DNA of 64,000 nt, taken from positions 26,729 to 90,728 of the forward strand of contig JBBRRY010000009.1 of assembly GCA_038245905.1 (NCBI GenBank), read 5' to 3'. The notes under the pieces are model-generated. The model was not told the origin of the DNA. It worked only from the letters and a program-made list of their open reading frames with translations, and did not search any database. Origin of the DNA: Thermoanaerobaculia bacterium. GTDB taxonomy: Bacteria > Acidobacteriota > Thermoanaerobaculia > UBA5066. Position 1 is the stretch's first letter. The number at the start of each line of letters is the position of its first letter. Positions 10,239 through 45,382 of this stretch are shown in pieces. Both the position numbers and the translations under genes were made by a program.

Positions 10239-11132
10239 TTACGTGACGCGGTGCCCCGCGGCTTCGCCGATTCTCGCGAGTGCCGCGAGGAACCGGAGCG
10301 TCTCTTCGACGTCGTGGACGCGGACGAGGACGGGGCGCGTCCGCGCCGATTCGGCACAGAGAGCCGCCGCCGCGAGCGACTCGGGCAGGCGTTCGTGCAC
10401 GGCCGCCCCCGCGATCGTCCCGAGGAACGCCTTGCGGGACGCACCGACGACGAGCGGGACGCCGGGAGACGCGAGTCGGTCCAGCGCGCCGAGGAGCGCA
10501 AAGTTCTGTTCGGGCGTCTTGCCGAATCCGAGACCCGGGTCGAGGAAGATTCTCTGCTCGGAAATTCCGGAAGAGATCGCGCGGGCGCGCGCCGTCTCCA
10601 GGTCCATGGCCGCTTCTCGTGTCACGTTCTGGAAAGAGGATTCTTTGAAGGTGGAAGAGGGAGTTCCGCGGCAATGGTTCAGCACGATCGCGGCGCCGCG
10701 GCTCGCAACGAGATCGAGGAGATCTGCGGAGACGTCGAGTCCGGTGACGACGTTGACCATGTCCGCGCCCGCGTCGAGCGCCGCGCGGGCCACCTCGACG
10801 CGCCGCGTGTCAATCGAGAGAGGAAGAGACGGAAGATTTCTTCGAAGGGAAGAGAGGATGGGAAGCACGCGGTCGATCTCTTCACTCGAGGAAATCTCTT
10901 TCGCGCCCTCTCCGTAAGCGCTGCCCCCGGGGCGTGTGCTCTCCCCCCCCACGTCTACGATTGCCGCGCCGAGGTCCGCGTATCGCGCGCCCTCTTCCGC
11001 CGCCTCCTCCGCGCTCGCGAAGCGGCCGCCGTCGCTGAAGGAGTCCGGCGTGACGTTCAGGATCGCCATGACGCCGGGGAGCGGCCCGAGGGCGAGCGTG
11101 CGGCCCGAGCCGAACTTCAGGACGGAGGTCAT
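10239..11132 (-). CDS. folP: Dihydropteroate synthase
   Basis: ILNVTPDSFSDGG, DVGGESTRPG, DPGLGFGK, GASRK, RVHDV. Start at ATG 11132. Confidence 0.95.
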   Translation of the reverse strand: MTSVLKFGSGRTLALGPLPGVMAILNVTPDSFSDGGRFASAEEAAEEGARYADLGAAIVDVGGESTRPGGSAYGEGAKEISSSEEIDRVLPILSSLRRNLPSLPLSIDTRRVEVARAALDAGADMVNVVTGLDVSADLLDLVASRGAAIVLNHCRGTPSSTFKESSFQNVTREAAMDLETARARAISSGISEQRIFLDPGLGFGKTPEQNFALLGALDRLASPGVPLVVGASRKAFLGTIAGAAVHERLPESLAAAALCAESARTRPVLVRVHDVEETLRFLAALARIGEAAGHRVT

Positions 11133-11149
11133 CCCGCTATTATCCGGGC

Positions 11150-12367
11150 ATGGAAGAACGCGACGTCGTCGTCGCGGGAGGCGGGATCGCGGGTCTCGCC
11201 TTCGCGCACCACGCGGCGGCGGCGGGCCGTTCCGTGCTCGTGTTCGAAGCGGGGACACGCGTCGGCGGCTGCCTGAACACGCGGCGCCTCGCGGACGGCT
11301 TCTGGTACGAGGCGGGTGCGCACACGGCCTACAACTCTTACGGGGCGTTTCTCGAGCTCGTCGAGGCCTGCGGTCTCATGGGCGGGATCCGCGCGCGCGG
11401 CGAGGCGCGTAAGCGCTTCGCCCTCCTGAAGGACGGCCGCATCTCGATGATGGGGCCCCTCTCCGTCTTCCTGAAGTTCGACCCCGTGGAGCTCCTTCTC
11501 ACGGCGCCGTTCGGACTCTTCCGCTCTAAGGACGGCCGGACGACGGCCGAGGCGTACGGCGGCATCGTCGGGAGGCGCAACTATGCGAACGTCCTCTCGC
11601 CATTTCTCGCGGCCGTTCCGTCGCAGAACGCTGACGGCTTCCCGGCGCACGGGCCGGGCTCGTTGTTCAAGACGCGCGCGCGGCGCAAGGACGTCGTGAA
11701 GAGCTTCACGCTGGAAGGCGGTCTCTCGGTGGTCGCCGACGCGCTCGCGCTAAGGCCGAACGTCGAGGTGCGGACGGGCGCGCCGGTGAAGAGCCTGCGC
11801 CGGGATGGCGCGGGATTCACCGTGACGCTCGAGGACGGCGCGGCCGTCACCGCGCGCACGGCCGCGCTCGCCGTGCCCCCGCCCGCGGCCGCGGCGCTCC
11901 TCGGGGACGGCAAGAGCGCGCTCGTGGCGGCGCTCTCGTCCATCGGCTCGGTACGCGTCGAGACCGTGGCGGTCGCGCTCCCGCGGGAGAAGACGGCTCT
12001 TCCCGAGATGGCGTTCCTCGTGCCGGTGAACGACCTCTTTCACTCGGCGGTCACGCGCGACCCCGTGCCCGGCGGGCGTCTGCGTGCCTTCGCGTTCCAC
12101 TTCAAGCCCGGCCACGCGCGGGAGGAGAAGCTCGCGCGCATCGAGCAGGTCCTCGGCGCCTCGCGCGAGGCCTTCGTCGACATCGCGGAGTCCGCCGTCG
12201 TCCTCCCCGCGCCTGCCCGCGCGCACGCGGAGTCCGTAGCCGCAATCGACCGCGCCGTCGCGGGCTCGCGCCTCGCCGTGACGGGCAACTTCTTCGACGG
12301 CCTCGCCATCGAGGACTGCGTCCTGCGCTCGAAGGCCGAGTGGGCACGGGTGTCGGCGCTCGTGTAG
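11150..12367 (+). CDS. FAD-dependent oxidoreductase, protoporphyrinogen oxidase (HemY)-like
   Basis: VVAGGGIAGL dinucleotide motif, RVGG, EAGAHT, C-terminal GNFFDGLAIEDCV. Confidence 0.75.
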   Translation: MEERDVVVAGGGIAGLAFAHHAAAAGRSVLVFEAGTRVGGCLNTRRLADGFWYEAGAHTAYNSYGAFLELVEACGLMGGIRARGEARKRFALLKDGRISMMGPLSVFLKFDPVELLLTAPFGLFRSKDGRTTAEAYGGIVGRRNYANVLSPFLAAVPSQNADGFPAHGPGSLFKTRARRKDVVKSFTLEGGLSVVADALALRPNVEVRTGAPVKSLRRDGAGFTVTLEDGAAVTARTAALAVPPPAAAALLGDGKSALVAALSSIGSVRVETVAVALPREKTALPEMAFLVPVNDLFHSAVTRDPVPGGRLRAFAFHFKPGHAREEKLARIEQVLGASREAFVDIAESAVVLPAPARAHAESVAAIDRAVAGSRLAVTGNFFDGLAIEDCVLRSKAEWARVSALV

Positions 12368-12383
12368 ACCGGATCGGCGCCCG

Positions 12384-12776
12384 TCAGGCGCGGGCGATGT
12401 CCACGGGAAGGACCGTCGCGATGCGGGTGAAGTCTGAGTCCCGCGTGAGGAGCGTGTGCCGGGACTCGGCGGCAGTCAGCGCGATCAGGAGGTCGACGAG
12501 CGCGGCCTGCGTGCCGCGGCGCGCGAGCGCGAAGCGCGCTTCGGCGATCCGCGGCCAGGAGTCCGGCGGGTCGGAGAGGACGTCGACACCCTCGAACGCG
12601 GCTTTGAGCCGCTCGAACTCGACGCGCGTACGCGCTCCTGAAAGGACCTCCGCGAGGATCGGCCCGCAGACGGCGACACGGTCGGTCTCGAGCGCCGCGT
12701 CGATCCGGGAGACGACGCGCGGGTTTCCCCTGAAGAACTCGACCCAGACCGAGGAGTCGACGAGGAGGTCGCTCAC
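12384..12776 (-). CDS. vapC: PIN-domain toxin (VapC family)
   Basis: LVDSSVWV, ILAEVL, DLLIA, LLTRDSDF; GTG start overlaps the antitoxin stop. Confidence 0.9.
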   Translation of the reverse strand: MSDLLVDSSVWVEFFRGNPRVVSRIDAALETDRVAVCGPILAEVLSGARTRVEFERLKAAFEGVDVLSDPPDSWPRIAEARFALARRGTQAALVDLLIALTAAESRHTLLTRDSDFTRIATVLPVDIARA

Positions 12777-12970
12777 GAAGGCCGCTGGCGCGCCTTCTTC
12801 AGGTCGATCTGAAGGTCCACGCGGCCCGCGAGGCGGCGCAGGTCTTCGCGCTTCGCTTTCCGGACGAGCTCGTGGAGGCCGGCGACGACGGTCTCGCGTT
12901 TCGTGGCGAGGCGCGCGGCCTTCCGCGCGTCTTCGAGGAGCTGCTCGGGGAGGTCAAAGGTCGTGCGCAT
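12773..12970 (-). CDS. vapB: VapB-type antitoxin (ribbon-helix-helix)
   Basis: MRTTFDLPEQLLEDARKAARLATKRETVVAGL; directly upstream of the PIN gene. Confidence 0.88.
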   Translation of the reverse strand: MRTTFDLPEQLLEDARKAARLATKRETVVAGLHELVRKAKREDLRRLAGRVDLQIDLKKARQRPS

Positions 12971-12976
12971 GCACAA

Positions 12977-13005
12977 AGCATAAGAAAGTGCTGCATTTTA
13001 TGCAA
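12977..13005 (-). promoter_or_regulatory. Sigma-70 promoter of vapBC with overlapping palindromic operator
   Basis: TTGCAT-17 nt-TATGCT, 6 nt before ATG 12970. Near-palindrome TGCATTTTATGCA (12992-13004) overlaps the -35. Confidence 0.7.
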
Positions 13006-13044
13006 CACGCTGAACGAAAAGGACCGCCGACGCCCGTCGGACGG

Positions 13045-13962
13045 CTACGCCACCAGGATCGGGTTTCTCAGGACGCCGATACCCTCGATCTCCGACTCGA
13101 GCACGTCCCCGGGCTTGAGATATTCGGGCGGTTTGCGGGCGTGACCGATGCCCGGAGGCGTTCCCGTCGAGAGGATGTCCCCGGACTCGAGCGTCAGGCC
13201 GAGCGAAAGCTCGGCGAGGAGACGCGGAACCTTGAAGTACATCTGGCTCGTGTTTCCGTCCTGCTTCACGACGTCGTTAACCCGCGAGACGAGGCGGCGC
13301 GAGGACCAGTCGAAGCCGTCCGCCGTGACGATCCAGGGCCCCATTGGCGCGTGCCCGTCCAGGCTCTTGCCCTTCCACCACTGACCGCCGTGCTTTTTCT
13401 GCTGTATGTCGCGGGCAGTAGTGTCGTTGAGGACGCAGTATCCGAATACGTGATCCATCGCCTCTTCCTCGGAGAGGTTTTTCCCGCGCCGGCCGACGAT
13501 GACCGCAAGCTCGACTTCCCAGTCGATCGCCGTCGACACTCGGGGGTCGTACGGAATGGGGTCGTACGGGCCATTGACGGCGTTCGTCCCCTTCGTGAAG
13601 AAGACGGGATGCTCGGGGAGAGCCTGGCCGGAATCCCGGAGCGATTTCCCTTCTTCGAAGTGCTCGACGTAGTTCCACCCGACGCAATGGACGTTGCGGC
13701 GGGGGACGGGGATCGGTGCGGTGAGGTGAACGTCCTCGACGCGTGGCCCGTCGCCGTCGGAGCGGCCGACGAGAGCCTGGACCTCGACGAGAGATTTCTC
13801 TTCCGCCGCGATCAGCGAAAGCATGTCGAGAGGATCGAACGACAGAGGACTGTTCTGCCGGCGCGCCTCCGCTCCGAGATCGACGACCCGGCCTTCGTCG
13901 GAGAGCACCCCGACGCGGATCCGTTCGCCGGCGAAGGGAACGAAGCTGAAAAGTCGCATCAC
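13045..13962 (-). CDS. Fumarylacetoacetate hydrolase family protein
   Basis: CVGWNYVEH, DWEVELAVIVG, NDTTARD, GKSLD, GDILSTGTPPG. Confidence 0.92.
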   Translation of the reverse strand: MMRLFSFVPFAGERIRVGVLSDEGRVVDLGAEARRQNSPLSFDPLDMLSLIAAEEKSLVEVQALVGRSDGDGPRVEDVHLTAPIPVPRRNVHCVGWNYVEHFEEGKSLRDSGQALPEHPVFFTKGTNAVNGPYDPIPYDPRVSTAIDWEVELAVIVGRRGKNLSEEEAMDHVFGYCVLNDTTARDIQQKKHGGQWWKGKSLDGHAPMGPWIVTADGFDWSSRRLVSRVNDVVKQDGNTSQMYFKVPRLLAELSLGLTLESGDILSTGTPPGIGHARKPPEYLKPGDVLESEIEGIGVLRNPILVA

Positions 13963-14040
13963 TACCTCTCCTCTCGCACATGTTTCAACCGGGGGTCTCC
14001 CGACCCATTCAGGCCGGCTTCGGGCTCAAGATCAAAGATG

Positions 14041-14613
14041 TTAAAGGTCCGCCCGAAATGTCTCGACTTGATAAACCGCCAGGCGCAGGTCACCGGCCCG
14101 GAGGTTGGCGGGAAGCCCGGCCTTTCTCTTGAGATGCGCCATGAAGTCGTGTGGCTCCGGCAGTTGTTCCCAGACCTGCGGCAGAAAGGTGGCGCGCTGC
14201 GTGCCGTATTGAATGATGACACCGTCGATGCCGGGACGAAGGCGGAGCAGGGCATCGGCCTCGCTGCTGAACTCGAGCGGCTGCGGCGGGGTCAGCACGG
14301 AAACCTCGACGCATACGGCGGGTAATTCGTCGGCCGCCAGGGGTGGAAAGCGCGGGTCGCCAAAGGCGGCGGCATGGGCGTTGTGGGTCACGTCGTCGTA
14401 CAGGGAGCGATGCGCTTCGAGTGAGCCGATGCAGCCGCGCAGCTGCCCGTGAAGGGTAAGGGTGACGAAGGTGGCCGCCGGTGCGTCGAGCCAGACCGGA
14501 CGGAGCAGGAAGGGCCAGGACGCGCCGAATTCGGCGGCAATCGCAGCGCGTGCCAGTGCGGTGAGGAGCCGGCCTTTGGTCTGATGTTCCGCCGCCACGA
14601 TGACTGTCTTCAT
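14041..14613 (-). CDS. amrA: AmmeMemoRadiSam system protein A (AMMECR1 domain)
   Basis: ATFVTL...LRGCIGS...AAFGDPRF...EVSVLT...ATFLPQVW...LKRKAG. Start ATG 14613, the tail of the 14041-16227 ORF. Confidence 0.9.
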   Translation of the reverse strand: MKTVIVAAEHQTKGRLLTALARAAIAAEFGASWPFLLRPVWLDAPAATFVTLTLHGQLRGCIGSLEAHRSLYDDVTHNAHAAAFGDPRFPPLAADELPAVCVEVSVLTPPQPLEFSSEADALLRLRPGIDGVIIQYGTQRATFLPQVWEQLPEPHDFMAHLKRKAGLPANLRAGDLRLAVYQVETFRADL

Positions 14614-14633
14614 CGGTCGCCGCGAGCGAGGCC

Positions 14634-16559
<1,926 letters not shown>

Positions 16560-16601
16560 CTTGTGCCCTCGACTCTCATACGCCGGTTTGGAGGATGTGG
16601 T

Positions 16602-17165: not shown

Positions 17166-17209
17166 AGGCGTGGAAGTCTAGCAGGGGGCTGCCCCGGGAA
17201 CGGGGAGGA

Positions 17210-18685
17210 TCAGGGCCGCGAATACTCGTCGATGACGCGCCCGATGGCCCGCCGGCAGACGGGGCAGAAGCCCCCGGGGTCGCGCGTGAACATGATGCAG
17301 TCGGCCGATGGCCGGTAGAGTCCCTTCGCCTCGTAGGAGGCACCCTCGAATGCGCCAACCTTGCCGGACCAGGGCATCGAGGACAGCAGCTTCGAGTCGA
17401 GACCCATCTGCCGGCGGAAGAGATCGTCGAGCGCCGATGGGGGCGCGCCCGATGCGATGAGACGCTTGCGCTCGGCCTGAATGCCGCGCGTCTGTTTCTC
17501 GAAGGCGTCCTTCTCCCACGGCGTCGGCCGCGGCGTCCCCTTCTCGACGAGATCCGCCCATTTGAATGCCGCCGGGTCCGCCGTCACGTTCGGCTCCCAG
17601 GGCTCCGGCTTCGGGCCGCCGGTCTCGTAGGCCACGTCCGAGCCGTAGTACTCGTCGGCGAGGCCCGCGAAGTGATGGCCGAACTCGTGCACGAAGACGT
17701 ATTCCGAAAAGCCCGTGTCCACCGAAGCTGTCGCCTGGAAGTTGTAGATGCCGCCGCCGCCGTACCGCGCGTCGTTCACGAGAATCTCGAGGAAGTCGTA
17801 CGGCGCCGCCGATGCCGCTTCGCGAAGGGCGCGGTCGTCGTACGTGAGCATGTAGCGCTCCGAGCCGAAGATGCCGTACTGGACGGACAGCGGCGTCCGC
17901 CGGAAGATGCGAGAGTCCGGGCGGAAAACGCCGCTCTCGCTCGCGGCGAGATCGAGCGCACGGACGTTGAAGTCGGCCCTGCGGCTCTTGAAAGGCTCGT
18001 ACGTGAAGAGAATGTCCACGAGCCTCTTCACGTCGGCGTGGAACTTCGTCAGGTCTTTCTCGGCGTAGCCCTCGCCGAGGATCAGGAGGTCGAGCTTCGA
18101 GGCGGCGGGCCCGTTCTCGAAGACGGTCCAGACCTTCCCGAGGGGCGGGCGGGGCGCGGGGTTCGATTCCGGCCCGGCGGGGTCGATCACGGCCTGGAAC
18201 AGCTCGTGGAAGACGTTGTCCTTGTCGCGGCGCTCGAGGACGACCCGGACTTTCTCCCGCGGCCATGGGATCCGGAGAGACTCCGGGAACGTGCGGGCGA
18301 CTCGCCGGGCCTCTTCCGTCTGCTCCCATTCGCTGTAGAGCGAGGAGTAGCCGCGCGAGAAGACGACGCGATTCGTCCGGAGGTCCCGCGCCTCGACGAA
18401 ATGGCTGCCGAGATTCGTCTCGTCGAGGAGGCGCGTGCGGCTTCCCGGCCACGGCCCGTCGTCGACGGCGCGGTCGAGCGCCACGATCTCTCCCTTTGGA
18501 CCGCCCGTGTGGAAGAGGTCGACGCGCATCGTGCGTCCGGTGAAACGGGTGTCGAATATCGAGGAAGAGGAAGAGATTTCTGCTGAAGAGGGAGAAGAAA
18601 GAAAGATTTCTTTGAAAAGGAAGAGAGAGGGGAGGGCCGCAGCAATCAACGAGAGGCGGCGCAGGGCGAGTCGGTGGGGCTTCAT
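17210..18685 (-). CDS. Secreted peptidase M64 (IgA peptidase family)
   Basis: Signal peptide, TMRVDLFHTG N-domain, YGGGGIYN, HEFGH..GLADEY, CIM..FCPVC. Start ATG 18685. Confidence 0.9.
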   Translation of the reverse strand: MKPHRLALRRLSLIAAALPSLFLFKEIFLSSPSSAEISSSSSIFDTRFTGRTMRVDLFHTGGPKGEIVALDRAVDDGPWPGSRTRLLDETNLGSHFVEARDLRTNRVVFSRGYSSLYSEWEQTEEARRVARTFPESLRIPWPREKVRVVLERRDKDNVFHELFQAVIDPAGPESNPAPRPPLGKVWTVFENGPAASKLDLLILGEGYAEKDLTKFHADVKRLVDILFTYEPFKSRRADFNVRALDLAASESGVFRPDSRIFRRTPLSVQYGIFGSERYMLTYDDRALREAASAAPYDFLEILVNDARYGGGGIYNFQATASVDTGFSEYVFVHEFGHHFAGLADEYYGSDVAYETGGPKPEPWEPNVTADPAAFKWADLVEKGTPRPTPWEKDAFEKQTRGIQAERKRLIASGAPPSALDDLFRRQMGLDSKLLSSMPWSGKVGAFEGASYEAKGLYRPSADCIMFTRDPGGFCPVCRRAIGRVIDEYSRP

Positions 18686-18689
18686 GGGG

Positions 18690-19661
18690 TCATCGTAAGC
18701 CCGGAACGAATCGCACGCGACGCGGGTCGACCTGGATGCGTCCCCCGGCAAACTCCTCCCCGAAGGTCTTGTCGCCTTTCTCGAGACGGAGCAGGACCTT
18801 CGTGATCTGGGCTTTTCCAGGGACCCTTCCGCCCGCTCCTGCGGCGCGGACGAGCAGCCGGCCGGCCTCCTCGCGCGAGAGGCGGGTGAAAAACGCACGC
18901 GGCCAATTACCATTCGAAGAAATCTTCTCTTCCGCCATCTTTTCGTCCAGACGCAGGTCGAGCGCGTCGAGGTGGCGCGTGACGGCCTCTCCGGCGCGGG
19001 CGAGCCTCCGGGAGGTTCCCGGGAACTTCCGTTCGAGGTCCGGAAGCACCGTGCGGCGGATGCGGTTGCGCGCGAACCCCTCGTTTTCGTTCGTTTCGTC
19101 CTCGCGGAACGGCGAACCGCGCTCTTCGAGGAATTGCCGGAGCTCGGCGCGCGAGAACGGGAGCAGCGGCCGGATCACGCCGTCTTCGCGCCGCGCCCGG
19201 ATGCCGCCTCGCCCTCGGCCCAGCTTCCGCTCGAGATGGAGGAGGACGGTTTCGGCCTGGTCGTCGCGCGTGTGGCCCGTGAGGACCGGGGCGTCTTCGA
19301 GGTCGTGGGAGAGCGCGAGAAGTGCCGCATACCGAAGACGCCGCGCGGCGGCCTCGAGGCTCTCGCCCTTCTTTCGCGAAGTCGGCACGTCCACGGGGCG
19401 AAACGCGAATGGGATCTCGAGCGCGGCCGCGAAACGCGCGCAGAAGCGGGCGTCCTCGTCGCCGGCCGTGCCCCTCAGGCCGTGCGCAACGTGCGCCGAC
19501 ACGACCGCGACGCCGCGCGGCAGGGCCCACTCAGAGACGAGGATGAGGAGCGCCGTCGAATCGCCGCCGCCCGAATGCGCCACGAGAAGCGTCGAGGAGC
19601 CCGGCAGGAGGCGCTCCTCCTCGACGTGGCGGGCGAATCGTTCCTCGAGCGGCTCCTGCAT
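18690..19661 (-). CDS. tilS: tRNA(Ile)-lysidine synthase (short form)
   Basis: AHSGGGDS, HGLR, EAAARRLRY, GHTRDDQAET, RPLL, DETN, RNRIR. Confidence 0.93.
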   Translation of the reverse strand: MQEPLEERFARHVEEERLLPGSSTLLVAHSGGGDSTALLILVSEWALPRGVAVVSAHVAHGLRGTAGDEDARFCARFAAALEIPFAFRPVDVPTSRKKGESLEAAARRLRYAALLALSHDLEDAPVLTGHTRDDQAETVLLHLERKLGRGRGGIRARREDGVIRPLLPFSRAELRQFLEERGSPFREDETNENEGFARNRIRRTVLPDLERKFPGTSRRLARAGEAVTRHLDALDLRLDEKMAEEKISSNGNWPRAFFTRLSREEAGRLLVRAAGAGGRVPGKAQITKVLLRLEKGDKTFGEEFAGGRIQVDPRRVRFVPGLR

Positions 19662-19712
19662 CCTGCGCTATCATCCGCCCTCCGCCCGGGCCCCCGGGCG
19701 AGCCTTTTTCGG

Positions 19713-19790
19713 GGCGGCGTAGCTCAGATTGGCCAGAGCAGGGGTCTCATAAGCCCTTTGTCGGCGGTTCGATTCCGCCCGCCGCCACCA
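19713..19790 (+). tRNA. tRNA with CAU anticodon (probably elongator Met; Ile2 not excluded)
   Basis: GGCGGCG/CGCCGCC acceptor stem, TAGCTCAG D-arm, CTCATAA loop, GGTTCGATTCC T-arm, encoded CCA. The G1:C72 pair argues against initiator. Confidence 0.93.
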
Positions 19791-19818
19791 GCCTTCTCAC
19801 GGGGCCTATGATTCCTCC

Positions 19819-30468: not shown

Positions 30469-31593
30469 TTAACCCCGATGCGGGCCGACGGCCCGGACCG
30501 CCCAGCGCAGCTTGGCGGCGGAGGAGCGGGGGTTCGCGCGGCGCTCTTCGGGCGCCGCGCGGACGACTTCGTCCGCGACGCGCGCGTAGAGGCCGCTTTC
30601 GAGGCCCGCCTTGAACGCCTTTTTCACGAGCCGGTCCTCGCCCGAGTGGAACGTCACGATCGCGACGCGCCCGCCGAGAGCGAGGCAGTGGGGCAGGTCG
30701 CGGAGGAACGCCTCGAGCGCCGTCAGCTCGTCGTTGACGAGGATGCGGATCGCCTGGAAGGTCCGCTGAAGGGAGGATTTCTTTGCTTCGGACGCGTCAC
30801 GCGAGGTCGTTCCTCGGTAGGCGAGCTCGACGGCAGCCGCAACGTCCGAAGTTCGGAGAAGAGGGGGATTTTTTAGAAGGTGAATAGGGCCGGAGCCGCG
30901 GCGCGCTTCATTCGTCTCATGCAATGCTGCGGCGATTCCCGCCGCTTTGGGCTCGTCTCCCAACCTTCTAAGAAAATCTTCTATCTCTTCTCTCTTCATC
31001 CGAAGCAGAAGAGCTCCGGCGGGGAGGCCGCGCGTGGGGTTCATCCGGAGGTCGAGCGGCGCGTCGTGCTTCCACGAGAAGCCGCGGCTCGGGTCGTCGA
31101 GCTGCATCGAGGAGACGCCGAGGTCGGCGAGGATGACGTCGGCGCCGGCCGCGCCACGAGCGTCTTCGGCGAGGAGCTTGCGGAGGCCTGCGTAGTTCCG
31201 CCTCACGCAGCGCACTGCGTCGGTCTCTCCGCGCTCCCTCGCGAGGGCCTTCAGCCGCGCCTCGGCCCTCGGCAGCTCGATGGGGTCGACGTCGAGGCCG
31301 AGGAGCCGGCCGCCGGGCAGGATCCTCTTCAAAAGCTCCGAAGCGTGGCCGCCATATCCGAGCGTCGCGTCCACGGCCACGTCGCCGGGGGCGGGGGCGA
31401 GCGCCTCGAGAACCTCGGCGACGAGGACGGGAACGTGGCTGCCGGCGGGCGTCTTCCCGGAGGCGATCACTTTCGTGCGCGCGTCCGGATACCGCGCCGC
31501 GTCGTGTTCCTTGTACTTCTCCTCGAATTTCTTCGGGTGGGTGCCCGCGTAGCGCGGACGCCTCTTGTGCTCTGGCGGTGGGTCGAAGTTCAC
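30469..31593 (-). CDS. rsmH: 16S rRNA m4C1402 methyltransferase RsmH family (long-N-terminus form)
   Basis: HVPVL, DATLGYGGHA, DLGVSSMQ, PLDLRM, FQAIRI.VNDEL, FHSGEDR, NPRSSAAKLR. Confidence 0.9.
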   Translation of the reverse strand: MNFDPPPEHKRRPRYAGTHPKKFEEKYKEHDAARYPDARTKVIASGKTPAGSHVPVLVAEVLEALAPAPGDVAVDATLGYGGHASELLKRILPGGRLLGLDVDPIELPRAEARLKALARERGETDAVRCVRRNYAGLRKLLAEDARGAAGADVILADLGVSSMQLDDPSRGFSWKHDAPLDLRMNPTRGLPAGALLLRMKREEIEDFLRRLGDEPKAAGIAAALHETNEARRGSGPIHLLKNPPLLRTSDVAAAVELAYRGTTSRDASEAKKSSLQRTFQAIRILVNDELTALEAFLRDLPHCLALGGRVAIVTFHSGEDRLVKKAFKAGLESGLYARVADEVVRAAPEERRANPRSSAAKLRWAVRAVGPHRG

Positions 31594-36983: not shown

Positions 36984-36992
36984 CGTTTCGAC

Positions 36993-37008
36993 TGGCACGG
37001 GCCCTGCT
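36993..37008 (+). promoter_or_regulatory. Putative sigma-54 (-24/-12) promoter
   Basis: TGGCACGGGCCCTGCT: GG-N10-GC, matching TGGCACG-N4-YTGCW, 9 nt before the VWA gene ATG. Confidence 0.55.
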
Positions 37009-37017
37009 GAGGGGCCG

Positions 37018-38742: not shown

Positions 38743-38753
38743 TCGCGGCGTCC

Positions 38754-39914
38754 ATGCCGCCTCCTGTCGTAGCCCTCGTCGGCCCGATTCCTCCCTGGCG
38801 GAGCGGGATCGCGGACCAGACTCAGCGCCTTGCGGTCGCCATGAAGGCGCTCGGAGTCGTTCCGCTGGTGTTCACGTTTCGAAGGATGTATCCGGGGTTC
38901 TTTTATCCAGGGAAGAGAACCGAGAATTTCTTTGAAGAGGAAGAGGGAACGGGGGAGCAGCTTCCGGCGGGGCTGTCTCTGCCCGCGCGCCCCGTCCTCG
39001 ACGGCCTCAATCCTCTCTCCTTCTATTCAGCTTCAAAGCAAATCCTCCTCTCCGGATGTTCCCTCGTCGTCGTCCCATGGTGGACAGCGTATTTCGCACC
39101 GCACGTGCTCCTCCTCTTCGCCGGGTTGTCTCGCGGGAGCGGCCGCGTGACGACGCTTCTCCTCTGTCACAACGTGTTCGACCACGAGCCGCATCTGTTC
39201 GCGGACGCGCTCACGCGCGCGGTCCTCGGGCGCGCCGACCGGTACGTGGTCCAGAACGCGCGAAACGCGGGCGAGATCGTGCGGGTGCGCCCCGATGCTG
39301 CCGTCTCGATCGTGCCGCATCCCTCGGAGCCCCGGGCCGTGATTCCGGACCGCGCGACCGCGCGCGCCCGGCTTGGAGTGCCGATCGACGTTCCGGTCTT
39401 CCTTTTCAGCGGGCTCCTCAGGCCTTACAAGGGCTGGGAGGTCCTCCTCGACGCCTTTCGCGCCGTCCGGACGGAAATCCCCACCGCGCTCCTCGTGTTC
39501 GCGGGCGAGCCCTGGGGCGAAGCGTGCGACCTGCCGGTCCGGGCTCCGGAGGGCGTCCGGCTCGAGCTCCGGTACCAGCCGGAGGAGGAGCGCGCCCAGT
39601 GGTTCGCCGCGTGCGACGCCGTCGTCTGTCCCTACCGTCACGCGACCGGATCGGGAATCGCCGCCGACGCGCTGGCGTTCTCGCGGCCCGTGATCGGCAC
39701 GGCGGTGGACGGGCTTCTTGGCATCGTCGAGGACGGCAGGAGCGGCCTCCTCGTTCCGCCCGGCGACGCGGACGCCCTTGCCGCCGCGATGATCCGCTTC
39801 GTCCGGGAAGCCCTGGGCCCGCGCCTCTCGGCCGGAGCCGCGCATCGCCGCTCGGTCTTCACGCCGGAGGAGCACGCGCGCCGGGTCCTCGCGGCGGGAG
39901 GCCTCGACGTATGA
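38754..39914 (+). CDS. Glycosyltransferase family 4
   Basis: GPIPPWRSGIA, CHNV, RPYKG, PYRHATGSG, GLLVPPGD. Confidence 0.88.
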   Translation: MPPPVVALVGPIPPWRSGIADQTQRLAVAMKALGVVPLVFTFRRMYPGFFYPGKRTENFFEEEEGTGEQLPAGLSLPARPVLDGLNPLSFYSASKQILLSGCSLVVVPWWTAYFAPHVLLLFAGLSRGSGRVTTLLLCHNVFDHEPHLFADALTRAVLGRADRYVVQNARNAGEIVRVRPDAAVSIVPHPSEPRAVIPDRATARARLGVPIDVPVFLFSGLLRPYKGWEVLLDAFRAVRTEIPTALLVFAGEPWGEACDLPVRAPEGVRLELRYQPEEERAQWFAACDAVVCPYRHATGSGIAADALAFSRPVIGTAVDGLLGIVEDGRSGLLVPPGDADALAAAMIRFVREALGPRLSAGAAHRRSVFTPEEHARRVLAAGGLDV

Positions 39915-39927
39915 GATCCTCTCCGCG

Positions 39928-40812: not shown

Positions 40813-40828
40813 CCGCAAGAGCCGGGCG

Positions 40829-41785
40829 TCAGAGGACGTCGCCGCAGTGCGGGCAAAACACGAACCCTTCCGTGTTCTCGTGCCGGCAGGAGACGTCGAC
40901 CGCCTTTGGGAGCCGCGCGTTCACGGTCTCCTCGAAGGGGTGCAACCGGACGCGTACGCCGTGGGTGTCCGCGGCCAGGAGCTCGATGCGGCGCCACATG
41001 GGGCCTTCCGGTCCATTCGCTTCGATGACGAAACCCTCGGTGCGGCGGCAGCATTCCTGGAACCAGGCGGCGAGAGGACTGAGAAAAGCGGCCGAGAGCC
41101 GGCGGGTGATGGCAGGGTGATCGGCGTCGAACGTGCGGAGAAACGCGCCGTGCGTGTTCGTCCCGAGCTCGAATTCTGTCGCGCCGAAGCGCAGGGACTC
41201 GGCGAGGAGCGCGCGGCCGAGGCGGTCGATGGAATCGTCGAGAACCGCTCTCGGCGCCGCTGGGTCGCTCGCCGGAGCGCTCGGCACGAGCGAGACGGAG
41301 GCGACGCCAGAGGAGGAAGCGGTCACCGGGGGGACCGGCGCGGCTCCCGCCGCCCGACCCTCGAAGCTCTCGATCAGGTCTTCGAGAACCGGGTCCGGCG
41401 TCACGTGGAGGTCCACGTCGAAGCCCGTGGAGGCCGCGAGATTCTTCAGGAGCACGAGATTGCGCGGATCGCAGGTGGCGACCCTGAGGCGCTTACCCGA
41501 GAGGGCGAACGGGAACGCGCGAAAGCGTCTCCTCTCCTTCGCGGGAAGGCAGTCGACGATGTCGGGGTCCGAGCTCGCGAGCGTCGCGCGCGAAACCCCG
41601 GGGAGGCCGTAGGCTTGCGAGAGCGCTGCCGTGAGGACTTCCTCGGTCACGGCGCCTGTCGAAAGGAGGGCCCTCTCGATCGTGCCGCCGTATGTCTTCT
41701 GCCATGTCGAAGCGCGACTCAGCCGGCGGACCGTCAGGTCGCCGGCTTCCGCGAGGACGTCTCCGACTCCGAGAGGTACCGCCAT
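40829..41785 (-). CDS. GspE/PilB N-terminal (MshEN-like) protein without ATPase domain
   Basis: VGDVLAEAG...Q...GG...LLSTG...ALSQAYGLP; AFPF..LRVATCDP; C-terminal CxH..FCPHCG. Confidence 0.72.
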   Translation of the reverse strand: MAVPLGVGDVLAEAGDLTVRRLSRASTWQKTYGGTIERALLSTGAVTEEVLTAALSQAYGLPGVSRATLASSDPDIVDCLPAKERRRFRAFPFALSGKRLRVATCDPRNLVLLKNLAASTGFDVDLHVTPDPVLEDLIESFEGRAAGAAPVPPVTASSSGVASVSLVPSAPASDPAAPRAVLDDSIDRLGRALLAESLRFGATEFELGTNTHGAFLRTFDADHPAITRRLSAAFLSPLAAWFQECCRRTEGFVIEANGPEGPMWRRIELLAADTHGVRVRLHPFEETVNARLPKAVDVSCRHENTEGFVFCPHCGDVL

Positions 41786-41812
41786 CGTCTCTACGGCAAG
41801 TGTACCTTTCGG

Positions 41813-43588
41813 TCAGCGGCCCGGGAAATACTCGCGCCAGCGCTTGTCGACAAGGGCCACGGTGCCGGGATCCGCCTCCACGACCTTCGGCATCCACGGT
41901 TTGGTCCGGGCGTCGATCACGACGGGTGGCGTAAAGGCGACGTGATTCCGAACGAGGCTTCGGCGGCCGTGCACGTCCGCCGCGGGCTCGAATCGCGTGA
42001 AGACGTGCCACAGGAACGAACGGTCGTCCTTCGCGGCCGCCGCCGCATCGTCCGCGAGGACGACGAGAGGCCATTCCCCGATCGAAGGGTCGGTGCTGAG
42101 GCGCTCGGCGAAGGAGCGGTCGTCGGCGAAAGACGGTCCGTCGACGACGAGGACACCGGCGCAGAAGATCACCGCCGCGCGCGCCCCCGCGGGCAGCGCG
42201 CCGCGGAATTCCCGCGGCAGATCGCGGATCGCGTCCCCGAGGCCGAGGAGAACGCCCTTGCTGCCTTCGTTCACCTTCGGGCCCGTGTAGTCGAGTGTGT
42301 CCATCGCGAGGTTGCCGAAAAGGAAGAGGTCCGATTCGAACCGGCAGCGCGCGAGCACGTGCTCGAGGAGGCCGCGGAAGTCGCGCAGGTCGCGGCGAGT
42401 GTCGGTCACGAGGAGAAACTTCGTCAGCGCGAGCTGGCCTTCGCCGAGGATCCGGAAGGCCGAGCTCATCGCTTCGCGGCGATAGCGGTCTCTCACGACG
42501 GCGGCCGCGAGCGAGTGGAATCCTGTGTCCCCGTAGCTCCAGAGATCGACGACCGAGGGCATCACGAGAGGAAACAGCGGGGAGAGAAGCTCCTGGAGGA
42601 AGTCGCCGATGTAGAAATCCTCCTGCCGGGGCTTGCCGACGACCGTGGCCGGAAAGATCGCATCGCGCCGCCTGTAAGCGCGCGCCACGTCGAAGACCGG
42701 ATAATCGTGTTTCAGCGAGTAGTAGCCGTAGTGGTCGCCGAAGGGGCCCTCGGGCATCCGGGTTCCCGGAGCCACGGATCCGGTGAAGGCGAATTCCGCG
42801 TCCGCCACGAGCCGGTGCGCGTGGCCCGCCACCCTGGTCATCGGGAGCTTCTTCCCGAGGAGGAGCGACGCGACGAGCAGCTCGGAGAGCCCTTCGGGCA
42901 GCGGCGCGATCGCCGCGAGGATGAGGGCCGGCGGGCCTCCCAGGAAAATCGTGACGGGCAGCGCTTCGCCGCGCGCCTCGGCCTCGTGGTAGTGGAATCC
43001 GCCGCCCTTCCCGATTTGCCAGTGGATGCCCGTCGTCCTCGGGCCGTGGATCTGGATGCGGTACATCCCGAGATTCGACTGCCCGTCGTGACGGCGGCCT
43101 GCCGGGCCATCCGAAGGAAGTTCCGTGTAGACGAGGGGCAGCGTCAGGAAGGGCCCGCCGTCTTCCGGCCACTGCGTGAGCGCGGGAAGCCGTGTGAGGT
43201 CCGGCTGGTCCTCGACGACGTCGGTCACGGGCGCGCGGGTCGCGCGCGTCGTCCCGACGCGGAGGGCGCTTCCGATAAACGAGCGGAACGCCCAGAGCTT
43301 CTCTGGAGTTGGAGGCAGAAGCTCCGTGGCGGCGCGGGCCGCCGTCTCGACGAATTGCCGCGGCTTTCTTCCGAACGCGAGCTCGAGACGCTTCGCCGTG
43401 CCGAAGAGGTTCGTCACGACGGGAAAGTTCGCGCCCTTCGGACGCTTGAAGAGGAGGGCGGGCCCGCCCTCCTCGATCACGCGGCGGTGGATTTCGGGAA
43501 TCTCGAGGTACGGGTCCGCCTCGGCCTCGACGACGGCGAGGTCGTTCTCCCTCCGGAGGACGTCGAGGAAGGCGCGCAGGTCTTTCAG
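41813..43588 (-). CDS. ubiD: UbiD-family prFMN-dependent decarboxylase
   Basis: VVTNLFGT, DGGPFLTLP, NLGMYR, PEGPFGDHYGYY, GKPRQED, DTLDY. The start appears to be CTG overlapping the pip stop. Confidence 0.9.
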   Translation of the reverse strand: MKDLRAFLDVLRRENDLAVVEAEADPYLEIPEIHRRVIEEGGPALLFKRPKGANFPVVTNLFGTAKRLELAFGRKPRQFVETAARAATELLPPTPEKLWAFRSFIGSALRVGTTRATRAPVTDVVEDQPDLTRLPALTQWPEDGGPFLTLPLVYTELPSDGPAGRRHDGQSNLGMYRIQIHGPRTTGIHWQIGKGGGFHYHEAEARGEALPVTIFLGGPPALILAAIAPLPEGLSELLVASLLLGKKLPMTRVAGHAHRLVADAEFAFTGSVAPGTRMPEGPFGDHYGYYSLKHDYPVFDVARAYRRRDAIFPATVVGKPRQEDFYIGDFLQELLSPLFPLVMPSVVDLWSYGDTGFHSLAAAVVRDRYRREAMSSAFRILGEGQLALTKFLLVTDTRRDLRDFRGLLEHVLARCRFESDLFLFGNLAMDTLDYTGPKVNEGSKGVLLGLGDAIRDLPREFRGALPAGARAAVIFCAGVLVVDGPSFADDRSFAERLSTDPSIGEWPLVVLADDAAAAAKDDRSFLWHVFTRFEPAADVHGRRSLVRNHVAFTPPVVIDARTKPWMPKVVEADPGTVALVDKRWREYFPGR

Positions 43589-44550
43589 GCGAACTTGTCC
43601 GTCGCGGCGACGAGCGCGCGCGTGTTCGGCGGCTCCCAGGCGCTGTGGCCCGCGTCGGGCGAGACGACGAAGTCCGCCTCGGGCCACGTGCGGTGGAGCG
43701 CCCAGGCGCTGAAGATCGGACAGACGACGTCGTAGCGCCCCTGCACGATCACGCCCGGGATGTGCCGGATCTTTCCGGCGTCGCGGAGGAGCTGGCCGTC
43801 CGCCTCCAAGAAACCCTTGTTCGCGAAGTAGTGGGCCTCGATGCGCGCAAAAGCGAGCGCGAACTCGTCCTCTTCGTAGTGCCCCGCGAACGAGGCGTCC
43901 GGAAGGAGCTTCGACGTCGCGCCCTCCCAGCCGCTCCATGTCTTCGCGGCGGCGAGCCTCACGGCGTGGTCCGCGTGCGTGAGCCTCTTGTGGTACGCGG
44001 TGACGAGGTCGCCGCGCTCGGCCTCGGGAATGTGCGCGAGATACGGCTCCCACGCGTCCGGGAAGATGATCGACGCGCCTTCCTGGTAAAACCAGTCGAT
44101 CTCCTTTTTGCGCAGGAGAAAGATCCCGCGGAGGACGAGCTCCGTCACGCGGTCCGGGTGCTTCTCGGCGTATGCGAGCGCGAGGGTCGAGCCCCACGAG
44201 CCGCCGAAGACCTGCCAGCTCGCGATCCCGAGATGGGTGCGGAGCTTCTCGATGTCGGAGACGAGGTCCCACGTCGTGTTCGCCTCGAGACTCGCGTACG
44301 GTGTCGACTTGCCGCAGCCGCGCTGGTCGAAGGCGACGATGCGGTACTTCCCGGGGTGGAAGAAGCGGCGCACTTTCGGGTCCGAACCGCCGCCCGGGCC
44401 GCCATGGAGGAACACGGCGGGCTTGCCCTTCGGGTTTCCGCTCTCTTCCCAGTACAGCGTGTGGACGTCCGAGACCTCGAGCATTCCCGTGCGGTTCGGA
44501 TCGATCGGGGGGTAGAGCCAGTTGACGGGGTCCTTGACCGGATGTGACAT
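43585..44550 (-). CDS. pip: Proline iminopeptidase
   Basis: LHGGPGGG, DQRGCGKS, FGGSWGSTL, QGRYD, AGHS. Confidence 0.95.
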   Translation of the reverse strand: MSHPVKDPVNWLYPPIDPNRTGMLEVSDVHTLYWEESGNPKGKPAVFLHGGPGGGSDPKVRRFFHPGKYRIVAFDQRGCGKSTPYASLEANTTWDLVSDIEKLRTHLGIASWQVFGGSWGSTLALAYAEKHPDRVTELVLRGIFLLRKKEIDWFYQEGASIIFPDAWEPYLAHIPEAERGDLVTAYHKRLTHADHAVRLAAAKTWSGWEGATSKLLPDASFAGHYEEDEFALAFARIEAHYFANKGFLEADGQLLRDAGKIRHIPGVIVQGRYDVVCPIFSAWALHRTWPEADFVVSPDAGHSAWEPPNTRALVAATDKFA

Positions 44551-44597
44551 GAGAACCTCTTCCCTCATCCTGCCAGAGTCGGCGGCGGGCCGCTTCG

Positions 44598-44993
44598 TCA
44601 GTCCCGGGCGGAGGGTGCGGCGAGGTCCCCGAGGCGCGTCGTGCGCAGGCGTTCGAGGAACTCGCGGCGGACGGACGCGAGGAGGCGGGCCGCCTCGCCC
44701 GGCGGCTCTGGGAAGGCCGTCTCGAGGTCGCCCTTCTTCTCGAGGGCGAGGACGAGGTCCGCGAGCGTGATCTCCGAGGCCGGCCGGCCGAGGACGAAAC
44801 CGCCTCCCCGCCCGCGACGGCTCCTGAGGAGACCCCGGTCCACGAGGCGGCCGAGGACCTTCGAGAGAAACGGCGCCGGGACACCCGCAGCGGCAGCGAG
44901 CTCCTTCACGCCGCGGCCTTCGCCGGCCGGGCCGCGCCGGTCGAGGAGAGGCAGCGCCGCGAGGGCGACCTCCTGCGCGCGCGAAAAAAACAT
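44598..44993 (-). CDS. Rrf2-family transcriptional regulator (no Cys)
   Basis: ELAAAAGVPAPFLSKVL..L...GLLRSRRGRGGGF.L....EITLAD. Start ATG 44993. Confidence 0.85.
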   Translation of the reverse strand: MFFSRAQEVALAALPLLDRRGPAGEGRGVKELAAAAGVPAPFLSKVLGRLVDRGLLRSRRGRGGGFVLGRPASEITLADLVLALEKKGDLETAFPEPPGEAARLLASVRREFLERLRTTRLGDLAAPSARD

Positions 44994-45382
44994 CAGCGCT
45001 TCGCGAGGAACGCGAACTGAGCGGGCGTGAGGGGGACGACAGAAAGCCGGCCGATCCGGACGAGGGGGGAGTCGGAGAAGAGGGGACAAGACTTGATTTC
45101 TTTGAGTGAAAGAGGACGGGGGAGGGGTCTCCCCGCGCGAAGGACGACTCGCGGTTCCGCCGGGTTCTTCGGATCTTCTTCGAAGGCGGAGACGGCGGCC
45201 TCGCCGACCGCGGACTTCTCGTTGCCCGTGTGGTAGACGATCACGCGGTCGCCCTTCTTCATCGAGCGGAGATGTCTCAGCGCGACGGGGTTTTTCACGC
45301 CCGTCCAGACCGTCTCGTTCTCCTTTCGGAGATCTTCAAAAGAAAAATCCCCGGGTTCTGTCTTTACCAGCCAGTCCGCCAT
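44993..45382 (-). CDS. EVE-domain protein
   Basis: WLVKTEP, WTGVKN, GDRVIVYHT, RLSVVP. RBS GAGGAGG before ATG 45382. Confidence 0.9.
   Translation of the reverse strand: MADWLVKTEPGDFSFEDLRKENETVWTGVKNPVALRHLRSMKKGDRVIVYHTGNEKSAVGEAAVSAFEEDPKNPAEPRVVLRAGRPLPRPLSLKEIKSCPLFSDSPLVRIGRLSVVPLTPAQFAFLAKR

Follow-up and report, generated by a model that had tools for sequence, protein, structure and literature searches.

A head-to-head DNA word lying mostly inside ordinary genes in one genus of Thermoanaerobaculia

The window analysed here, a 64-kb stretch of DNA, belongs to a metagenome-assembled genome of the Thermoanaerobaculia (Acidobacteriota) of 3.8 Mb and 68% GC (G000). The bacteria carrying the word described below form one genus, uncultured, from sediment and soil. 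In the window the word lies in the following genes:

10239..11258, minus strand: folP, dihydropteroate synthase (Pfam Pterin_bind, 6.8e-64; PDB DHPS, 7.5e-47)
17210..18685, minus strand: peptidase M64 (Pfam M64_N and Peptidase_M64), with the start revised to 18685 from the N-terminal translation
18690..19661, minus strand: tilS-like PP-loop gene (Pfam ATP_bind_3, 5.9e-43)
30469..31593, minus strand: rsmH/MraW-family methyltransferase paralog (Pfam Methyltransf_5, 7.3e-68)
38754..39914, plus strand: GT4 glycosyltransferase (Pfam Glyco_trans_1_4 and Glycos_transf_1)
44993..45415, minus strand: EVE-domain gene (Pfam EVE, 1.3e-28)

A second rsmH/MraW copy, with 44% identity, is present in every genus genome searched. 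The gene map comes from a rough caller, in which some starts are misplaced and some genes are missed (a DNA ligase, the M64 start and apparently a kinase).

The motif is purine-rich, asymmetric and about 40 nt long, and consists of an R-tract of about 16 nt followed by ATTTCTT[A/T/C]GAAGG and then KGAARRGG; the single arms are not palindromic and do not fold on themselves. A position weight matrix (PWM) trained on the whole genome, used at thresholds of 18 and 24 with a lowest listed cut-off of 14 bits, places 609 motif sites in G000, grouped in 344 clusters. The words TTTCTTAGAA, TTTCTTTGAA and TTTCTTCGAA occur 109, 86 and 82 times, where composition predicts 0.4–0.8.

A reading of the window from its letters alone had proposed a dispersed motif in five clusters, and all 16 of the strings that it quoted were found in place. 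Allowing up to two mismatches, the window contains 11 occurrences of GATTTCTTYGAAG where 1.87 are expected, a count that none of 100 shuffles reaches. Eleven copies score at least 18 (10640+, 10837+, 10885-, 18577+, 18607+, 18913-, 30869+, 30966-, 38927+, 39032- and 45097+). Five of the proposed copies are weak: scores stay under 14 bits at 30776+ and at the supposed singletons 25393+ and 37249+, and are about 13 around 45172+ and about 8 around 45334-. These five could be chance matches or copies in decay. The scored copies are as follows:

10628..10661, plus strand: extra left arm in folP, antisense, encoding PSSTFKESSF; PWM 29.5
10825..10858, plus strand: left arm of the folP pair, antisense, encoding LSSLRRNLPS; PWM 37.7
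10873..10906, minus strand: right arm of the folP pair, sense, encoding KEISSSEEI; PWM 20.1
18565..18598, plus strand: extra left arm, weaker, located in the linker that follows the M64 signal peptide; PWM 22.5
18595..18628, plus strand: left arm of the M64/tilS pair, in the M64 N-terminal linker; PWM 42.2
18901..18934, minus strand: right arm of the M64/tilS pair, within the 3' part of tilS; PWM 33.4
30857..30890, plus strand (window strand): left arm in the rsmH-like gene, whose own strand encodes PIHLLKN; PWM 38.6
30954..30987, minus strand (window strand): right arm in the rsmH-like gene, encoding EEIEDFLRR within a conserved helix; PWM 36.1
38915..38948, plus strand: left arm in the GT4 gene, encoding NFFEEEEG; PWM 36.4
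39020..39053, minus strand: right arm in the GT4 gene; PWM 27.3
45085..45118, plus strand: left copy in the EVE gene, with weak partners at 45172+ and 45334-; PWM 23.2

The intragenic placement that had been claimed is borne out by Pfam domain ranges, by the alignment of folP to PDB entries, by translations of rsmH-like orthologs and by the M64 N-terminus. The M64 gene starts at 18685 with the signal-peptide-like MKPHRLALRRLSLIAAALP, and the copies at 18577 and 18607 are therefore coding; the M64/tilS pair spans both the tilS stop and the M64 start, and its left arm forms an inverted repeat with 18913–18926 that is 93% complementary. Genome-wide, 172 of 234 strict matches fall in called genes, 78 of them sense to the gene and 94 antisense and spread over six frame classes, and the 62 'intergenic' ones are an overestimate because the rough caller misses genes and misplaces starts. 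The sites lie mostly at tolerant places of ordinary genes, in any strand or frame.

The arrangement with plus copies on the left and the minus copy on the right, first noticed in the window, is true of all five clusters there, and an independent inverted-repeat search recovered the arm pairs in four of them. Among neighbours no more than 500 bp apart in G000, the order is (+,-) in 185 cases and (-,+) in 20, with 30 each of (+,+) and (-,-). The convergent pairs, with their copies pointing inward, are 40–300 bp apart with a median spacing of 117 bp, and neighbour distances of 50–200 bp number 177 against 13 expected. Of the sites that count as unpaired, 35% are accompanied by a weak partner in the convergent position and 2% by one in the divergent position. 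In the genus, with 29 of 29 genomes represented, pairs with a gap of 60–90 nt amount to 1201 convergent and 41 divergent loci (29:1). Both the head-to-head pair as the genome-wide unit and the specificity for the genus go beyond what had been noticed in the window. Of 177 pairs, 127 fall inside one called gene. Of 185 pairs, 80 have the same base in both partners at the variable core position (about 35% expected) and 105 have different ones. The spacing shows no codon phase and no 10.5-bp periodicity (power 1.1 against a null of about 1; 176 pairs with 1–2 nt of anchor noise, hence of limited power).

The suggested recurrence every 6–12 kb did not hold, as the distances from one of the 344 clusters to the next have a coefficient of variation of 1.18 against 1.12 ± 0.08 under random placement, and motif-free stretches of normal composition reach 78 kb. 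Such placement makes a role requiring regular domain boundaries unlikely. No replication-strand bias was found, the unpaired copies being without relation to GC skew.

The copies were written in place by point substitutions, both synonymous and non-synonymous, and not inserted. Against solved DHPS structures and outgroup folP sequences the folP arms align without insertion (10825..10858 included), and the outgroup codons there are GC-rich; among eight pair regions alignable to outgroup homologs, seven have 0–5 gap positions and one has a 17-residue insertion. The stretches enclosed by the arms show no relationship to one another, with one cluster of three among 184.

Once written, the copies are kept. 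Site positions are conserved between species, with 36 of 48 aligned ortholog cells scoring at least 18. In folP the orthologous sites score 17–30 at 10628..10661, which is codon-aligned against outgroups, and 25–33 at 10873..10906, each in four of four aligned relatives; in other species the motif of this right arm encodes ILLESE or ISANEE. At M64/tilS the left arm scores 24–40 in four of four aligned relatives and the right arm 20–38 in five of five, and the weaker copy at 18565..18598 is retained in two of four. Of 25 orthologs of the rsmH-like gene, most have the left arm in the equivalent position, a T>C change at 30872 in related populations giving the consensus core, and all 25 keep the right arm (30–33 in five of five relatives) with synonymous variation. 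The GT4 left arm is duplicated in G008 and degenerate in G003, and the right arm is shifted by about 15 nt further on in G021, G014 and G020, so that an arm has been re-created in one clade and duplicated in another species. The EVE copy scores 20–25 in three of five relatives, with stronger partners at orthologous places in G021.

The sequence-only reading had held that selection acts on the DNA, and had named amino-acid-preserving shuffles as the comparison against which the excess could fail. The excess survives, at 7- to 16-fold: coding sites number 440 at threshold 18 against 53–70 in ten synonymous shuffles, and 314 at threshold 24 against 14–29. Identity to five relatives at codon positions 1, 2 and 3 is 0.82, 0.82 and 0.76 in the motif cores, 0.81, 0.86 and 0.61 in the 60-nt flanks, and 0.88, 0.905 and 0.68 over all coding sequence. 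This flattened third-position conservation, the excess over codon shuffles, the re-created arm and the motif kept under differing amino acids support selection on the DNA.

The word is confined to the genus. Exact cores number 46–186 in each of 25 tabulated genus genomes (G000 and 24 relatives), with 10–110 perfect pairs per genus genome at a gap of 60–90 nt, whereas 16 genomes of two other families have 0–3 cores and five sister genera 0–1. Copy number differs 4- to 11-fold across species, a pattern more suggestive of a population that drifts or is driven than of a fixed architectural need.

The best reading, tentative at a probability of roughly 0.3, is a lineage-specific signal that would be read as duplex DNA by a putative protein acting on head-to-head pairs. 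Each copy would be bound by this sequence-specific, lineage-specific protein, and two inward-facing bound copies would cooperate across the intervening DNA, either by bridging or by inward-directed oligomerization, so that the chromosome would be marked or shaped at several hundred randomly placed points. We infer the protein nature of the reader, duplex binding and the action of the complex from the sequence patterns. Inward-facing pairs have an analogy in oriC, which is flanked by oppositely oriented high-affinity DnaA boxes. The arms behave as independent matches to one consensus, as a sequence reader would predict: the duplex energy of true partners is -25.4 kcal/mol against -24.7 kcal/mol for permuted ones (p = 0.08), and of 34 positions 17.68 are identical between true partners and 17.44 between permuted ones. 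Helical phasing would be the mark of rigid looping over about 100 bp, and its lack in the spacing, within the limited power of the 176 pairs, argues against it. The functions first put forward, a protein that organizes the nucleoid or forms loops, or a signal for uptake or architecture, stay candidates, although their simple versions are disfavoured by the missing phasing, the random placement, the variation in copy number and the convergent excess.

The alternative that survives best, though improbable, is that the competence machinery prefers DNA carrying the motif, so that substitutions toward it spread by transformation and accumulate in place, the mode of origin suggested for USS and DUS. 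The uptake sequences USS (Pasteurellaceae) and DUS (Neisseriaceae), as described in sections of PMC2817400, are likewise lineage-specific and hyper-abundant, with hundreds of copies; they are made by substitution, overlap coding sequence in several frames and change the local peptide at poorly conserved residues. The several-fold differences in copy number between species also fit such a drive. A search for ComEC found it in G000 and in 18 of the 19 genus genomes covered, but it is equally common in sister genera without the motif and thus does not discriminate; a VirB4-type secretion system was found in 0 of 41 searched. A single-site uptake signal does not predict the 29:1 convergent excess or the mostly paired sites. 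Unlike USS and DUS, the motif here is an obligate head-to-head pair of words of about 40 nt, 40–300 bp apart, at a roughly 5-fold lower density (about one site per 6 kb, against 765–1892 sites in three genomes treated in those sections of PMC2817400). DUS/USS, parS, matS and IHF had been set aside at the outset, rightly so as judged by architecture and strand bias only.

Slightly less probable is a hairpin signal in RNA or single-stranded DNA, in which the arms form a stem of 20–35 bp enclosing 40–250 nt that a structure- and sequence-specific factor binds or cuts. Because the arms are an inverted repeat, a transcript of either strand carries the purine-rich arm on its 5' side and the pyrimidine-rich one on its 3' side, an arrangement that would account for the polarity as well as for the lack of any dependence on gene strand. 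Pairing as RNA or single-stranded DNA is open to any two inverted copies. The minimum-free-energy fold joins left to right arm in the three pair regions folded (z = -3.69, -1.52 and -0.74), the two arms pair with a mean duplex energy of -25 kcal/mol, the spacing lacks helical or codon phase as a loop would have it, and most pairs lie inside one called gene. However, permuted partners pair as well as true ones, partners agree little beyond expectation at the variable core position, and the sense transcript has no G·U-compatible asymmetry (527 versus 495, p = 0.33). Furthermore, about five of the 25 intergenic pairs listed sit between divergent genes, by the rough calls, where a shared transcript is unlikely; single arms do not fold; and structure alone leaves one sequence at several hundred loci unexplained. 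Y1/HUH transposases, which read DNA hairpins, were found in only two of 15 genus genomes, G000 not among them.

It is very unlikely that the arms are sites of one master invertase that flips the short interiors, with several hundred proteins recoded or truncated in part of the population as a result. Intragenic invertons, described down to 57 bp in a portion of bioRxiv 10.1101/2023.03.11.532203, share the architecture of short in-gene segments between inverted repeats, which here have a common consensus. However, flipping is not seen here, and the several hundred loci of one consensus include essential genes, with folP, tilS and other housekeeping genes among the hosts. After in silico inversion 56 of 126 genes stay open, compared with 52 and 43 for phase-shifted controls and 60–80 for random same-gene segments, so that no selection for a readable flipped form appears. 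Orientation and frame of the rsmH-like gene are identical in 25 of 25 orthologs, inversion does not predict the convergent excess, partners mostly differ at the variable core position, and no strand-switch joint at the arms is listed in contig-level data, in which rare forms drop out.

Least likely, and already largely refuted, is the insertion in frame of mobile elements, the pairs then being decayed MITEs or REPIN-like doublets like the Rickettsia RPEs: the terminal inverted repeats of common consensus, the MITE-like length distribution and the one 17-residue insertion fit, but seven of the eight regions, folP and the rsmH-like gene align insertion-free to homologs, the interiors are unrelated and the arms non-palindromic. 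Y1_Tnp/RAYT genes are absent from G000 and present in two of 15 genus genomes, but in 12 of 12 genomes from the family's other genera, and TnpB was found in 0 of 20 searched. REP, BIME and REPIN sequences resemble the present motif in their several hundred species-specific copies, commonly in inverted doublets (passages of PMC3116915, PMC3337134 and PMC3733652), and head-to-head dimers predominate in REP families, of which intragenic members exist (passages of PMC3733652). REPs are, however, individually palindromic, extragenic and spread by RAYT through insertion, with a conserved spacer in REPINs, whereas here the arms do not fold, are mostly intragenic and enclose native coding sequence, and RAYT-type genes are missing.

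Among other over-represented words, Chi and KOPS are oligomers tolerated inside genes; they are of 5–8 nt and co-oriented with replication, whereas unpaired copies here ignore GC skew and pairs are symmetric by construction. HIP1 of cyanobacteria (GCGATCGC) is likewise hyper-abundant within and between genes and held to be selected, and its function stayed unresolved for decades (parts of PMC5861425, PMC4390886 and PMC13756078). It is an 8-bp palindrome linked to orphan methyltransferases and found about once per gene, whereas the word here is long, asymmetric and paired.

In conclusion, the motif is very probably a DNA word of about 40 nt, purine-rich, asymmetric and peculiar to the genus, with the head-to-head pair as its functional unit, made by substitution and kept throughout the genus. 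A paired word of DNA lying mostly inside ordinary genes points to a putative reader of the DNA itself.

The source genome is a 3.80 Mb assembly of 113 contigs (67.8% GC, 96% complete) in which the window occupies C9:26729-90728, and the closest named records to its folP are metagenome-assembled genomes (MAGs) labelled Thermoanaerobaculia (Acidobacteriota), with 76–80% protein identity. The most over-represented AT-rich 10-mers genome-wide are all fragments of one word: TTTCTTAGAA, TTTCTTTGAA and TTTCTTCGAA occur 109, 86 and 82 times, respectively, against 0.4–0.8 expected from composition. In 285 aligned TTTCTTNGAA sites the variable position is A in 109, T in 86, C in 82 and G in eight, and conserved flanks extend from about −16 to +20. 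The resulting motif of about 40 nt consists of a purine tract, the core ATTTCTT[A/T/C]GAAGG and KGAARRGG, and its strand carries 75–90% purines over the conserved span, the TTTCTT block excepted. The inner half (+7 to +15, for example window 30876-30884), AGAAGGTGA, is what we take to be a Shine–Dalgarno-like sequence, and its complement presumably resembles the 3′ tail of 16S rRNA, a gene that is missing from this assembly. Species 'dialects' were considered and rejected, as the core with G at the variable position is a minor variant in every genome (3–27 copies each). At window position 30872, related populations from three other metagenome runs carry C for T, by which GATTTTTTAG becomes the consensus GATTTCTTAG.

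An iterated position weight matrix (PWM) with a threshold of at least 18 bits yields 609 non-overlapping sites genome-wide, 11 of them in the window. The strings quoted in the sequence-only reading are all present where it had placed them, and its core is enriched in the window, with 11 occurrences at two or fewer mismatches against 1.87 expected, a count reached by none of 100 shuffles. Five of the copies it listed are weak: those at 30776+, 25393+ and 37249+ do not reach 14 bits, and scores of about 13 and 8 are found where it had 45172+ and 45334−, respectively. The gene map comes from a rough codon-usage caller (3204 genes, 93% coding) that sets some starts wrongly and overlooks some genes, and the window genes were therefore taken from Pfam, PDB and ortholog evidence. 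Each of the 11 window sites falls within a gene backed by Pfam or homology. Genome-wide, 172 of 234 strict matches fall inside called genes (78 sense and 94 antisense, distributed among the frames), and the 62 outside are an overestimate because the caller misses genes. The following genes were also noted.

Window 19713-19787, + strand: tRNA (Rfam, 63.7 bits), directly upstream of tilS and the sole Rfam match in the window
Window 30469-31593, − strand: MraW/RsmH-family gene of 374 aa, one of two such genes in every genus genome searched
Source genome, G000:C2:216648-217409: MraW/RsmH-family gene of 325 aa, about 44% identical to the 374-aa form

The window MraW/RsmH copy is probably the divergent paralog. 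The start of the M64 peptidase most likely lies at 18685, 4 nt past the tilS stop (18690), which gives it a signal-peptide-like N-terminus; the longer 567-aa reading frame from 18913, which overlaps tilS, is probably unused.

The unit of the motif is a head-to-head pair, with a + copy (arm) on the left and a − copy on the right. This convergent order, described in the sequence-only reading for five clusters, proved to be general: neighbours less than 500 bp apart are (+,−) in 185 cases, (−,+) in 20, (+,+) in 30 and (−,−) in 30. Neighbour distances of 50–200 bp number 177 against 13 expected under a Poisson model, and the pair spacing ranges from 40 to 300 bp with a median of 117 bp (10–90% range 66–202). 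Among 245 unpaired sites, a sub-threshold partner lies on the convergent side in 35% and on the divergent side in 2%. Summed over per-genome tables, the pattern TTCTTHGAA-N60-90-TTCDAAGAA occurs at 1201 loci (10–110 per genome, in all 29 genus genomes), whereas the divergent arrangement occurs at 41 loci in the same genomes. A separate repeat search recovered the arm pairs in four of the five window clusters.

The spacing within pairs shows neither helical nor codon periodicity, including no 10.5-bp period, which excludes or weakens rigid looping. The regular chromosomal spacing that had been claimed for the clusters was not borne out: the gaps match random placement, and motif-free stretches of normal composition reach 78 kb, which together exclude or weaken regular domain anchors. 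A polar word of the Chi or KOPS type is likewise excluded or weakened, as the unpaired sites show no strand bias co-oriented with replication, being independent of GC skew (+ strand, 45 in positive and 49 in negative skew; − strand, 46 and 36). H-DNA was rejected, site-specific mirror symmetry being absent (z of −0.6 to +0.6 at five offsets).

Constraint acts on the nucleotide sequence. The codon-shuffled comparison proposed in the sequence-only reading, run as ten within-gene synonymous shuffles, gave 440 real sites versus 53–70 at threshold 18 and 314 versus 14–29 at threshold 24. At three motif places in folP, outgroups encode similar residues with GC-rich codons, and within the genus rare codons together with altered residues spell the motif; the proteins vary there, the same DNA word being read as the species-specific peptides EISSSEE, EISANEE and EILLESE. 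For the window against five congeners, the identities at the first, second and third codon positions are 0.82, 0.82 and 0.76 in the 15-nt core, 0.81, 0.86 and 0.61 in the 60-nt flanks, and 0.88, 0.905 and 0.68 for coding sequence as a whole, values that come from 11 sites and five related, non-independent genomes. Over-representation beyond codon usage and synonymous-site conservation are shared with HIP1, which, however, is a short palindrome targeted by orphan methyltransferases, whereas the present word is asymmetric and spans about 40 nt.

Aligned relatives score at least 18 in 36 of 48 site-by-relative cells. Some sites of the relatives have no counterpart in this genome (such as one at window position 4580-4590), the right arm in GT4 lies about 15 nt apart between two clades, and one species has two copies of the GT4 left arm. 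In the rsmH-like orthologs L020, L022, L024 and L025 (genomes G018, G012, G042 and G043, respectively) a segment of about 25 residues (HLLxxSD..AVES) is tandemly duplicated and brings an extra right-arm copy. The exact core occurs 46–186 times per genome in all 25 genus genomes tabulated (the source genome and 24 relatives), zero or one time in five sister genera of the same family, and zero to three times in 16 genomes of two other families, where two genomes are unpublished (G025, one match; G030, two matches) and the claim rests on the remaining 14. No analogue of the motif was seen in 200 kb of each of the outgroup genomes G027 and G028. The latter (G028:C1:1000001-1200000; L131-L140) has its own AT-rich repeats, runs of TTCGGATTT / AAATCCGAA (for example at 58.9k, 60.8k and 72.9k), apparently intergenic and in inverted blocks about 100–160 bp apart; they constitute another word and probably a distinct phenomenon. 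A phage link was rejected: 34 exact 18-mer matches in viral contigs all lie in DNA of 31–46% GC and are attributed to chance.

The pairs formed in situ; they are not mobile. The folP product aligns to solved dihydropteroate synthase (DHPS) chains across both arms, and a seven-residue insertion near them is present in outgroups too. In the rsmH-like gene the arms sit on a conserved helix and on a loop, and the DNA between them varies in length among 25 orthologs, always by multiples of three and in one orientation throughout. Indels that preserve the frame occur between the GT4 arms as well. Alignment to homologs in 400 kb from two outgroup genomes was possible for eight of the 126 same-gene pairs: 0–5 gap positions occur in seven of these regions and an insertion of 17 residues in the other, and four of the eight are paralogous Ser/Thr kinases compared with one outgroup gene. 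The interiors of 184 pairs are mutually unrelated, with a cluster of three kinases as the sole exception. In arrays of paralogous Ser/Thr protein kinases (G021:C19:282791-336961; C11, C24 and C25 of the source genome) the pair stands at the same place in each, flanking RFEREARLLAxLNHPGIA, and part of the copy number thus reflects gene-family expansion.

A drive resembling that of DNA-uptake signals (USS/DUS) would account for the in-place origin and for the variation in copy number, and two of its hallmarks are present: the motif is lineage-specific and hyper-abundant, and it has built up within coding regions through substitutions at weakly constrained residues and in several frames. The motif colonizes coding sequence in the manner of USS/DUS (PMC2817400) and HIP1. 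Such a drive is nevertheless unlikely, as it does not account for the pairing: the USS/DUS unit is a single copy with no obligatory partner, against the present 185 versus 20 neighbours and the genus-wide excess of convergent loci. ComEC is present, but equally so in sister genera without the motif, and type IV secretion VirB4 (PF03135) was found in none of 41 genomes.

Recognition of a hairpin, in RNA or in single-stranded DNA, would explain the polarity, and the arms would pair if single-stranded; we consider it quite improbable, however, since true partners show no greater complementarity than random arms (−25.4 versus −24.7 kcal/mol, p=0.08), no covariation and no wobble-compatible asymmetry (527 versus 495), and a hairpin alone does not explain the common sequence. 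A search of the whole window for known RNA families (Rfam) gave the tRNA only. Intragenic invertons fit poorly and are very unlikely: inverted repeats do flank intragenic segments, but 56 of 126 frames remain open after inversion versus 43–80 in controls, with the flipped frame unfavoured. The 25 rsmH-like orthologs share one orientation and no joint lies at the arms among the listed contig joints, which cover contigs, in which rare inversions would be invisible.

Mobile elements also fit poorly and are scarcely credible, as insertion of a MITE- or RPE-like element relative to homologs fails in seven of the eight alignable regions, in folP and in the rsmH-like gene. REP doublets are alike in copy number and head-to-head form (PMC3733652), but REP/REPIN units are extragenic, self-folding imperfect palindromes that are copied as a doublet with a conserved spacer and have a cognate RAYT in the genome, whereas the motif is mostly intragenic, its pairs have spacings of 40–300 bp and unrelated interiors, and single arms do not fold (three arms, −3.4 to −6.7 kcal/mol, z of −0.15 to −1.6). 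Y1_Tnp/RAYT (PF01797) has no match in the source genome and is found in two of 15 genus genomes, in all 12 genomes from the family's other genera and in 24 of 26 of another family, f2; one row of this table, G025, is unpublished, and the claim is independent of it. Loss of Y1_Tnp (IS200/RAYT-type) coincides with the motif-gaining lineage. A TnpB/Cas12f-type RNA-guided reader (PF07282) was found in none of 20 genus genomes. One gene exactly flanked by a pair (C1:64528-65085) resembles a Nudix-type hydrolase by eye and not a transposase.

A more far-reaching reading, given a probability of roughly 0.4, is a novel genome-wide signal of several hundred head-to-head pairs laid over coding sequence and served by a dedicated lineage-specific factor, with a function distinct from uptake, transposition and replication polarity. 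Such a signal might, for example, mark the chromosome as self versus foreign DNA or nucleate short protein-covered segments. Each arm independently matches one asymmetric consensus, so that a reader of the sequence itself is required. This putative reader would be sensitive to relative polarity and indifferent to exact distance, frame, gene strand, replication direction and genomic position. The simplest model, which we put forward tentatively, is a lineage-specific DNA-binding protein for which two inward-facing sites would cooperate across the intervening 60–200 bp; the main objections to it are that phasing is absent, that copy number varies several-fold from species to species and that a candidate protein is lacking. 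The probability left over from the named readings falls to a mechanism of another kind.

USS/DUS, HIP1, Chi and KOPS are hyper-abundant words in coding sequence and clear cases of non-protein forces shaping genes, and each such class of word has led, or may lead, to DNA-handling machinery. The present motif is a lineage-specific word of this kind that lacks defining features of each system compared; its new feature is a head-to-head pair that is obligate and polar but free in its spacing, an architecture unreported for those four. A search of the open-access literature (main texts without supplements) found no published description for Thermoanaerobaculia or as intragenic overrepresented inverted repeats.

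In conclusion, the pair is made in place and kept across some 29 species of a single uncultured genus of Acidobacteriota, and sister genera are without it. Given this sharp phyletic boundary, the gene for the putative reader, if the reading is true, would be identifiable by phyletic profiling against the motif-free sister genera. Both protein sequences and codon usage are visibly distorted by the motif, a point of consequence for annotation, for analyses of codons and selection, and for evolutionary rates derived from MAGs in this group.
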